Positions 2,775-4,429 of a stretch of DNA of 4,429 nt are shown in pieces (the first letter of the stretch is position 1; each line of letters starts with the position of its first letter). The notes under the pieces were generated by a model. The model worked only from the letters and a program-made list of their open reading frames with translations. It was not told the DNA's origin and did not search any database. A program made the position numbers and the translations under genes. This DNA is from a virus (lineage: Duplodnaviria; Heunggongvirae; Uroviricota; Caudoviricetes), in the IMG/VR virus record IMGVR_UViG_2675903289_000007; one strand, 5' to 3'.

Positions 2775-3167
2775 ATGCGTGATATTCAGATGGTTCTTGA
2801 GCGTTGGGGAGCGTGGGCGGCTAATAATCATGAAGATGTGACCTGGTCGTCCATTGCCGCCGGTTTTAAGGGATTAATTACTTCAAAAGTAAAATCTCGC
2901 CCGCAATGTTGTGACGATGACGCGATGATTATTTGCGGGTGCATGGCCCGTCTGAAAAAGAACAACAGCGATTTGCACGATTTATTAGTAGATTATTATG
3001 TAGTCGGTATGACATTCATGTCACTGGCAGGTAAGCATTGCTGCTCTGATGGTTATATCGGGAAAAGGTTACAGAAGGCTGAGGGCATAATTGAAGGGAT
3101 GTTAATGGCATTAGATATCCGGTTAGAGATGGATATCGTTGCTGTAGGTATGGTTTACCAGTTCTAA
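2775..3167 (+). CDS. quuD: Late-gene antitermination protein Q, small Cys-rich DLP12/phage-82 type; 130 aa as encoded here, with an atypical C-terminus identical to a porin terminal beta-strand
   Basis: ATG 2775 with GGAG about 8 nt upstream (the ORF-track TTG at 2760 is less likely). Product [35 protein letters not shown]... with Cys clusters ([18 protein letters not shown]). The last 11 residues [11 protein letters not shown] are a canonical porin C-terminus; see findings. Confidence 0.8.
3132..3141 (+). repeat. Left copy of 10-bp inverted repeat GATATCGTTG, at the junction where Q switches to porin-type C-terminal codons
   Basis: Exact reverse complement (CAACGATATC) occurs at 3406-3415. 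Sequence identity between the two gene ends stops immediately outside these 10 bp on both sides. Confidence 0.8.
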
Positions 3168-3183
3168 TTTGATTACTAAAAGA

Positions 3184-3337
3184 NNNNNNNNNNNNNNNNN
3201 NNNNNNNNNNNNNNNNNNNNNNNNNNNNNNNNNNNNNNNNNNNNNNNNNNNNNNNNNNNNNNNNNNNNNNNNNNNNNNNNNNNNNNNNNNNNNNNNNNNN
3301 NNNNNNNNNNNNNNNNNNNNNNNNNNNNNNNNNNNNN
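3184..3337. other. Run of N (masked or unresolved bases), 154 nt, inside the Q-porin intergenic segment
   Basis: Continuous n characters. Confidence 1.
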
Positions 3338-3371
3338 GGGGCGTTGCAACGCCCCATTTTTAATAATTTTT
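3338..3371 (+). terminator. Intrinsic (rho-independent) terminator, plus-strand orientation
   Basis: GC-rich stem GGGGCG (3338-3343) / CGCCCC (3350-3355) with loop TTGCAA, followed directly by ATTTTTAATAATTTTT (3356-3371). The 5' flank is masked, so a matching A-tract (bidirectional terminator) cannot be assessed. Sits 170 nt downstream of the Q stop and about 30 nt from the porin stop. Confidence 0.65.
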
Positions 3372-3388
3372 AGTAAACAATTGGCATA

Positions 3389-4429
3389 TTAATTAGAGTT
3401 ATTAACAACGATATCATCGGTAGCAACGCCAGATGCTTTCGTGAAATCGCTCTTATCAATCAGGTTGATTTTGTAATCAACAAAAGTGGACATATTTTTG
3501 TTGAAGTAATAGGTTGCACCTACATCAATATATTCAACCAGGTCCTGATCACCCCACGCACCCAAGTCTTTTCCTTTAGATTGCAGGTAAGCAACGGACG
3601 GACGCAGACCGAAGTCGAACTGATATTGTGCAACTACTTCGAAGTTTTGTGCTTTGTTGGCAATATGGTTATTACCAAAAACAGTCATGTTCTGGGTTTC
3701 AGAATAGGTGGTAGCCAGATAGATGTTGTTCGCATCATATTTCAGACCAGCTGCCCATACTTCAGCATTTTGACCAGATGCATTCAGGCTGTTGTTACCG
3801 TAGATAACCTGATTATTAGTGCGGTCAGATTTAGCATAGGTTGCACCTACACCGAATCCTTCATACTCATAAGTAGTGGAGAAACCGAAACCATCACCAT
3901 TAGCTTCAGTTACGTCAGTGCGGTCATTTTTACCCTGATACTGAGCAGCAAAGTTCAGACCATCAACCAGACCAAAGAAGTCGTTGTTACGATAAGTTGC
4001 AACACCAGTGGTGCGACCAGTCATGAACACATCTGTTTGAGTCCAAGTGTCACCACCGAATTCTGGCAGGACGTCAGTCCACGCACCGATGTCGTATGCT
4101 ACACCGTAGTTACGGCCGTAATCGATGGAGCCGTAGTCACCGAATTTCAGGCCAGCGAAGGCAAGACGGGTTTTATCTTTGGAGGAACCTTGAGATTCAG
4201 CGCGGTTGCCTTTGAATTCATATTCCCACTGACCGAAACCAGTCAGTTGATCGTTGATTTGGGTTTCACCTTTGAAGCCAAGACGGGCATAAGTAGTATC
4301 ACCATCATCTGCATCATTAGAGGAGAAGTAGTGCTTAGCATTAACTTTCCCGTACAGATCCAGCTTGTTACTGTCTTTATTATAAATTTCAGCTGCCTGA
4401 GCAGACATCGCCATCAGTACTGATGCAGC
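3389..4429 (-). CDS. nmpC: Outer-membrane general porin of the NmpC / OmpD / Lc (phage-borne OmpC-like) family; 5' end beyond the window (signal peptide only partly present); C-terminus aberrant (ends DDIVVNNSN, terminal beta-strand and Phe missing)
   Basis: Frame is open to the window edge upstream of the ORF-track Met (reads ...[12 protein letters not shown] then mature [16 protein letters not shown]...). Throughout, the product carries porin hallmarks ([104 protein letters not shown]). Stop TAA (complement) at 3389-3391. Confidence 0.9.
3406..3415 (-). repeat. Right copy of 10-bp inverted repeat (CAACGATATC on plus strand), at the junction where the porin loses its canonical C-terminus
   Basis: Reverse complement of 3132-3141. 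On the minus strand it encodes the D-I-V of the porin tail, after which the frame reads VNNSN-stop instead of AVGxVYQF. Confidence 0.8.

Follow-up and report, generated by a model that had tools for sequence, protein, structure and literature searches.

The fim switch of Escherichia coli is a 314-bp invertible promoter with 9-bp inverted repeats, served by FimB and FimE from flanking recombinase genes, and both of its orientations are common. Inversions between short inverted repeats that proceed independently of RecA, by illegitimate recombination or by replication template switching, are likewise established in E. coli. Such RecA-independent events between short inverted repeats were reportedly described in this species by Schofield, Agbunag and Miller in Genetics in 1992. 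In invertons, as recorded by the PhaseFinder and PhaVa surveys, both orientations coexist in a population, and the flipping is attributed to site-specific invertases (PMC10028968). Here we analyse a stretch of 4429 bp, referred to as the window, which is the entire record CXCF01000238.1 of the draft Shigella sonnei assembly GCA_001251775.1. In it, a Q antiterminator gene of the QuuD type and a convergent prophage gene for a general porin have exchanged their 3' ends across a 10-bp inverted repeat.

The Q protein of the window, deposited as CSP92733.1 (Shigella sonnei), comprises 130 amino acids (aa) when read from the ATG used in the record. That it belongs to the QuuD family is indicated by the PF06530 match of the called gene and by residues 1-122, which are native and identical to the common allele. 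Beyond this point AVGMVYQF replaces VNNSN, the alignment showing that the last 5 residues have given way to 8, while reference Q proteins are 127 aa long, as had been expected for K-12 QuuD in an earlier reading of the DNA made from the letters alone (the sequence-only reading), and end in DIVVNNSN. The reciprocal change is seen in the porin, for which the stop codon lies at 3389-3391 and the N-terminal 16 codons fall beyond the end of the window. It ends in ...DDIVVNNSN, the last beta-strand and the terminal Phe are gone, and its full-length flipped form would have 357 aa, compared with 360 aa, last beta-strand included, in the reference porin. The un-inverted porin aligns end to end with solved porins (last strand ...IVALGLVYQF; OmpK37 end ...DNIVALGLVYQF). 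The window protein is an otherwise normal Porin_1 member which lacks the 16th beta-strand, ...V-Y-Q-F, and the C-terminal Phe of general bacterial porins. This swap of C-termini had been noticed in the sequence-only reading, and we find it precisely where it was placed.

The exchanged codons lie in two readable pieces, X and Y, separated by a run of N (Table 1). In comparison with a reference locus (L005) and a locus of the window's own lineage (L009), piece X matches L005 6863-6822 and L009 6088-6047, and piece Y matches L005 6700-6633 and L009 5925-5858, all at 100% and in reverse orientation; the flanks match on the same strand, and the suspicion that the core is reversed relative to its relatives is thereby confirmed. 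When 3142-3405 is re-inverted in silico, the result differs from L009 at 0 of 3577 compared bases, and a QuuD of 127 aa (...DIVVNNSN) and a porin of 360 aa are restored. The strand switch relative to the references falls inside 3132-3141 and 3406-3415, that is, within a short repeat, as in illegitimate inversions. Both novel junctions are confined to the 10-bp identity, and among the readable bases none has been added or removed, 121 bp of the interior being N. They lie 42 and 68 nt from the gap, inside uninterrupted sequence. In both genes the repeat is in phase 0 and reads GAT ATC GTT (D-I-V), the common word being GATATCGTT(G). The normal junctions read Q-...GATATCGTTGTTAATAAC and ...CCTACAGCAACGATATCATCGG, and the flipped-junction words are AGATGGATATCGTTGCTGTAGGTATGG and TTAGAGTTATTAACAACGATATCATCGG. 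The estimate of about 264 bp for the segment has to be corrected: an inverted segment is indeed present, but the true spacer in relatives is 231 bp, since the 264 of the window includes the 154-N gap behind which 121 bp are unseen.

It should be noted that a repeat of this kind is not unusual in itself. The 4.3-kb reference counterpart contains 3 pairs of 10-bp inverted repeats at a spacing of up to 300, where 1.6 would be expected, and one or more such pairs turn up in 67% of simulated sequences. It is the orientation, reversed in comparison with all relatives, that goes beyond chance, and not the repeat. The 10-bp repeat is present in all of these relatives because of coding constraint, D-I-V being specified in both genes.

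Evidence from outside the deposited record was obtained by constructing the full-length flipped porin of 357 aa in silico, with its N-terminus taken from L009 and its C-terminus from the window, and by looking up the exact protein. The predicted sequence exists (P0018), and its sole source is one 1679-nt contig of Logan. As Logan contigs are assembled from raw public reads, with no scaffolding and no gap filling, the porin-side junction is present in reads. A chance or systematic product is argued against by nine analogous flipped proteins, built in other allelic backgrounds, none of which occurs in the 15-billion-protein collection. Whichever isolate it comes from, the Logan contig was assembled independently of the deposited scaffold; its length would suffice to cover most of the spacer, and we draw no conclusion from this. 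The porin with the normal tail (P0017) is found on 223 contigs, in other S. sonnei deposits and at the same contig end, so the pipeline does not flip this region systematically.

The flipped state is not a common alternative state. The exact 130-aa chimeric Q is known from one contig only, the window itself. No flipped junction occurs in 5426 complete E. coli genomes, 2425 and 2198 of which match the two junction probes, or in any of 35 phage records, and exact scans for both flipped junctions in the GTDB representatives, IMG/VR and the JGI metagenomes gave no match. Nine loci of the same lineage (eight megabase-scale records and one 5.3-kb draft contig) match all six window pieces, mostly at 100%, including the IS1 junction and the porin allele. 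All nine have the normal arrangement, with X and Y on the other strand, a Q of 127 aa and a porin of 360 aa. A survey of other genomes for both orientations, as proposed in the sequence-only reading, thus returns the normal state only. Its view that the un-inverted state is ancestral is supported, and that state is universal among relatives.

We consider it probable, with a likelihood of roughly 0.7, that the window records a single real and private inversion between the two copies of the 10-bp repeat, independent of any recombinase and dominant in the sequenced Shigella sonnei DNA. By this account, quuD and the convergent porin gene of a DLP12/PA-2-like remnant flanked by insertion sequences (IS) share the common word by chance, its two copies forming an inverted repeat at a distance of 231 bp. 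A single illegitimate exchange at these copies, possibly through template switching during replication or through repair of a break at the microhomology, would have turned the spacer round together with 5 terminal codons of Q and 8 of the porin. Both genes stay open because the repeat is read in a shared codon phase. The outcome would be a Q of 130 aa with a porin beta-strand as its tail and a porin of 357 aa without strand 16, presumably clonal in the culture from which the DNA was taken. The uniqueness of the flipped state fits a rare accident. Of the two origins considered in the sequence-only reading, microhomology-mediated rearrangement is the supported one and accords with the 10-bp identity at D-I-V, whereas a recurrent switch is not supported, given that no flipped copy was found in the other genomes and collections and that the repeat is of chance length.

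In its main traits the event resembles the short-repeat inversions of E. coli: the breakpoints lie in an inverted repeat that is short and perfect, the exchange appears exact and reciprocal as far as bases can be read, it is rare and isolated, and no dedicated recombinase is implicated. It differs from them in that the 10-bp repeat is at the short end, that it comes from a natural isolate rather than from reporter selection, and that the repeat copies are coding and in the same phase, so that two convergent genes swap their tails in frame. The setting is shared with the quuD-nmpC region of DLP12 and with lc of PA-2, where ybcN-ninE-ybcO-rusA-ylcG-quuD and the convergent porin are followed by lysis genes and the proteins are the same. 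The window is set apart by a porin C-terminus replaced through inversion and not through an IS, and by the cutting of the remnant by IS1 and IS21 in the S. sonnei lineage.

The C-terminal signal, consisting of the last strand and the terminal Phe, is needed for the assembly of outer-membrane proteins. Loss of strand 16 and of the C-terminal Phe should therefore probably abolish insertion of the porin, making the event effectively a porin knock-out. The porin of K-12, nmpC, is likewise silenced at its 3' end, by an IS5 insertion. One and the same porin protein is encoded by S. sonnei-type loci, ETEC1731 and strain 600468, even though their genes, compared over window 3406-4429, L005 6864-7887 and L001 3674-4697, differ at 13-16 positions, all synonymous. 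With 13-16 synonymous and 0 non-synonymous differences, this points to strong purifying selection acting on the prophage-borne porin.

Several points weigh against an inversion of this kind. A priori, a private inversion would be expected only very rarely at any one particular repeat of 10 bp. The middle 121 bp are unseen, and the continuity of the flipped spacer rests on a scaffold read-pair link. The Q-side junction is known from the deposited scaffold only, the chimeric Q not being recorded from Logan in its 130-, 135- or 125-aa forms. The porin allele of the Logan contig is common to E. coli strains, so that an origin of this contig from the same isolate as the window is presumed. To these must be added that the N runs are scaffold gaps, three within 4.4 kb and all over-estimated, one of them inside the segment; that the minimum overlap at which GapFiller closes a gap, 10 nt, equals the length of the repeat; and that, for the pipeline presumed to have made the record, the authors caution against false joins and give a figure of 4-10 misassemblies per genome.

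The last three points bear on the foremost rival explanation, which we regard as unlikely, namely that the genome is actually in the normal orientation and that the reversal is an artefact of assembly or library. Small contigs could have been placed backwards during scaffolding or gap closing and fused at the 10-nt overlap; alternatively, fold-back or template-switch chimeric molecules could have arisen at the inverted repeat in library preparation. Judging from the type of deposit, the record was presumably made by the Velvet/SSPACE/GapFiller pipeline. The Sanger paper on this pipeline, which covers 299 S. sonnei assemblies, states that SSPACE and GapFiller are greedy and may join falsely, and that the improvement step uses only reads that are not in proper pairs. 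GapFiller closes gaps on overlaps of at least 10 nt, trims and regrows their edges, and extends with 30-mers at 29-nt overlaps. The junctions, at 42-68 nt from the gap edges, lie in the zone that gap-closing software rewrites, and an artefact would also suit a flipped state that is a singleton among thousands of same-lineage assemblies and a Q-side junction without a Logan record.

As to the misjoin feared in the sequence-only reading, the N run inside the segment is really a scaffold gap; the junctions, however, lie in contiguous sequence, and a contig assembled from raw reads encodes a complete porin with the flipped tail while the control chimeras are absent. Neither junction falls at a contig end, in an N run or in a repeat as long as an assembler word, nearness to the gap remaining a caution. 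The software route would require that contigs were broken at both repeats, once within ordinary coding sequence of the porin, that two tiny contigs were both misoriented, and that each side was falsely closed in the one register available. Closure by GapFiller on 10 nt was considered as the cause on its own; it has the same needs and leaves the Logan contig unexplained, and we keep it as a minor rival. The 10-nt repeat is too short for the 29-nt-overlap extension of GapFiller or for any assembler word, and since 10 bases cannot carry a k-mer assembler or a 30-mer extension across, the junction k-mers must come from reads. The 45-nt piece of the same scaffold was correctly placed. Finally, chimeras from the library, formed at one specific repeat of 10 bp, would need to be more abundant than normal molecules at both junctions and with two different assemblers.

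It appears distinctly improbable that the rearrangement is real but of a more complex kind masked by the gap, such as an inverted duplication or a two-step template switch. Room for such a rearrangement is left by the link between X and Y, which is never seen as sequence (N run 3184-3337), by a gap estimate of 154 that exceeds the expected 121 bp, and by the inverted repeats of the spacer, including an 18-nt pair at 83%, which could mediate extra switches. The excess carries no signal, however: the three gaps of the scaffold are too long by 15, 65-66 and 33 nt, and the first two values belong to collinear sequence. The left contig runs 2 nt beyond the 9-nt core of the inner repeat on the path expected of a simple inversion, and a simple inversion accounts for every observed base.

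Least probable, and by a small chance only, is a programmed or recurrent invertible element in which the spacer would toggle the assembly competence of the porin and the tail of Q, flipping spontaneously at appreciable frequency or through a recombinase encoded elsewhere, and of which a rare state was caught. Its attraction lies in a geometry like that of gene-overlapping invertons, with short repeats inside two genes and both products in frame, in a repeat kept in all relatives, in a recombinase-family gene, ybcK, a few kb upstream in related E. coli prophages, and in the fact that gene-overlapping and intragenic invertons are widespread (PMC10028968). As in such invertons, the repeats lie inside coding sequence and the flip recodes or truncates proteins while the frames remain open (PMC10028968); here, in contrast, the flipped state is found in one record and one Logan contig, no recombinase is linked, and the result is a loss of function. 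No flipped copy is present in the 2425 complete E. coli genomes, the 35 phage records or three large contig collections, the flipped proteins are absent from nine other allelic backgrounds, and 9 of 9 same-lineage loci are normal, so that the two orientations expected of an inverton are not both seen among genomes. The repeat, at only 10 bp, is of chance length, and the flipped state destroys a porin that appears to be under strong purifying selection. As the sequence-only reading had remarked, no recombinase gene is visible, none being called in the window; the called genes in the 4-kb flanks of the same-lineage loci include no recombinase beyond the IS21 and IS1 transposases. The fim switch, to which the repeat had been likened, is similar in the size of segment and repeat, but its repeat sequence is unrelated, the spacer scan found no promoter-like site, and other genomes show no alternative state. 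Equally slim is the chance that in prophages of the DLP12/PA-2 type the Q-porin spacer turns over reversibly and infrequently at the D-I-V microhomology, either spontaneously or through an unlinked recombinase, and that the flipped state took over this culture; if this were true, a subpopulation without an assembly-competent phage-encoded porin would exist, for instance one resistant to phage or colicin.

Table 1. Coordinates in the window of the features discussed in the text
Feature	Position	Strand	Basis or remark
Left arm of the 10-bp inverted repeat, GATATCGTTG	3132..3141	+	Left crossover site; D-I-V in Q
Right arm of the inverted repeat, CAACGATATC	3406..3415	+	Right crossover site; D-I-V in porin
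Inverted segment	3142..3405		Readable parts 100% on opposite strand of reference; flanks on same strand
Piece X	3142..3183	+	Last 8 codons of porin (AVGMVYQF), stop and 15 nt of 3' flank, in frame with Q
Piece Y	3338..3405	-	Last 5 codons of Q (VNNSN), stop and 50 nt of 3' flank, in frame with porin
QuuD-type Q antiterminator gene	2775..3167	+	Open reading frame (ORF) list; PF06530 Phage_antitermQ; alignment with 127-aa cluster members
Prophage general porin gene, NmpC/Lc/OmpD type	3389..4429	-	ORF; Pfam Porin_1/Porin_4
Scaffold gap	3184..3337		154 N; stands for 121 bp with two hairpins in relatives (content L009 5926-6046)
Weak hairpin GATATCC...GGATATC at end of Q	3114..3137	+	Terminator-like scan; reference counterpart L005 6605-6628
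Perfect 18-nt palindrome GGGGCGTTGCAACGCCCC, then T run	3338..3355	+	Terminator-like; scans of reference (minus strand) and window (plus strand)

The spacer and its edges (L005 6500-7000, the counterpart of window 3010-3540) are rich in further inverted repeats. These comprise the 18-nt pair mentioned above, one arm of which occupies the extreme end of the left contig, an 11-nt pair joining the palindrome to porin sequence just beyond the right repeat, and three GATATC palindromes. One of the three is the weak hairpin at the end of Q, whose right arm overlaps the left repeat. Some other assemblies break exactly at this left repeat, as seen from partial proteins of the QuuD cluster (P0011) ending in ...ALDIRLE, which derive from two E. 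coli contigs that stop directly before it.

The terminator-like palindrome GGGGCGTTGCAACGCCCC with its T run faces the porin strand in relatives and the Q strand in the window. Comparison at window 3338-3355, L001 3493-3511 and L004 601-618 showed two natural forms of this spacer hairpin, GGGGCGTTGCAACGCCCC in the window lineage, strain 504239 and ETEC1731, and GGGGCGTTGAGACGCCCCC in strain 600468. The palindrome stands at a contig edge and was considered as a fold-back artefact; we rejected this, as the same 18 nt occur in strain 504239 and in all same-lineage loci. A consensus promoter scan of the spacer region yielded no promoter-like site. An Rfam search of the reference Q-porin-lysis region gave only a sub-threshold Trp_leader-like match outside the segment (20.8 bits, with gathering at 41). 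This match, at L005 8254-8376, may be the same region as a plus-strand terminator-like hairpin at L001 5157-5178, which is past the porin and some 140 nt upstream of essD, the holin gene. In phages of this type, the late promoter/terminator module is probably located between the porin and the lysis genes and not beside Q; as the late terminator-like site upstream of the holin is beyond the porin, the segment probably does not hold a late promoter.

The N runs at 445-464, 510-1187 and 3184-3337 are already present in the NCBI record, which is thus a scaffold of four pieces, and masking by a tool was rejected on the same ground. All gaps are over-estimated, with 20, 678 and 154 N standing for 5, 612-613 and 121 bp, the 20-N gap representing TTTTT only. 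Rearrangements hidden by the other gaps were considered and rejected, every piece being collinear with and 100% identical to relatives; the 45-nt island between two gaps is correct in order and orientation. The piece from 1188 begins in the right arm of a hairpin, CGCATTTAAG-GGGA-CTTAAATGCG, the piece from 3338 begins with the 18-nt palindrome, and the piece to 3183 ends just short of a GC-rich hairpin. The position of gap edges at hairpins suggests that reads or assembly failed at hairpins in this data set. Drop-out of AT-rich sequence as the cause of the gaps is unsupported, given that the hidden 121 bp have 41% GC and that several gap edges are at hairpins.

The window carries ybcN, ninE, ybcO, rusA and ylcG, the QuuD-type Q gene and the convergent general porin gene, in the gene order of DLP12 and PA-2-like phages. 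Positions 1-30 are the end of IS1; this stretch has a median of 9 copies per E. coli genome and lies beside IS1 transposase genes. In same-lineage chromosomes the remnant is bounded upstream by IS21 and IS1, and by IS1 390 nt past the porin start (L009 2798-2830; 7536 onward). Upstream of ybcN, the E. coli prophage versions (L001 1) have the recombinase-family gene ybcK and different genes, whereas in the version of the window (L007-L015) their place is taken, next to IS1, by two small ORFs on the minus strand and by a truncated replication gene P. Of the 9737 gene-index blocks with the YbcN allele of the window, 7910 have a longest contig of 2-5 kb, a pattern that marks a single IS-rich clone sequenced in thousands of drafts. 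Thousands of drafts yield the region as an island of 4-5 kb because IS elements box in the prophage remnant.

The private inversion would account for two odd database proteins, CSP92733.1, a 'Q' of 130 aa, and CSP92740.1, a porin without its last strand. Unless there is read-level evidence, such chimeras should be taken neither for new variants of a protein nor for invertons. The exact look-up of a predicted chimeric protein in read-derived assemblies may prove a useful check in this respect, as it separates scaffolding artefacts from real junctions.

The biological significance of the finding is modest. It adds one more instance to a class of events already known. If real, it would be a clean natural case in which chance in-phase microhomology let one inversion swap the C-termini of two convergent genes with their frames kept open. 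It would also provide Shigella with another route, beside IS insertion, by which to inactivate a prophage porin whose protein is strictly conserved.

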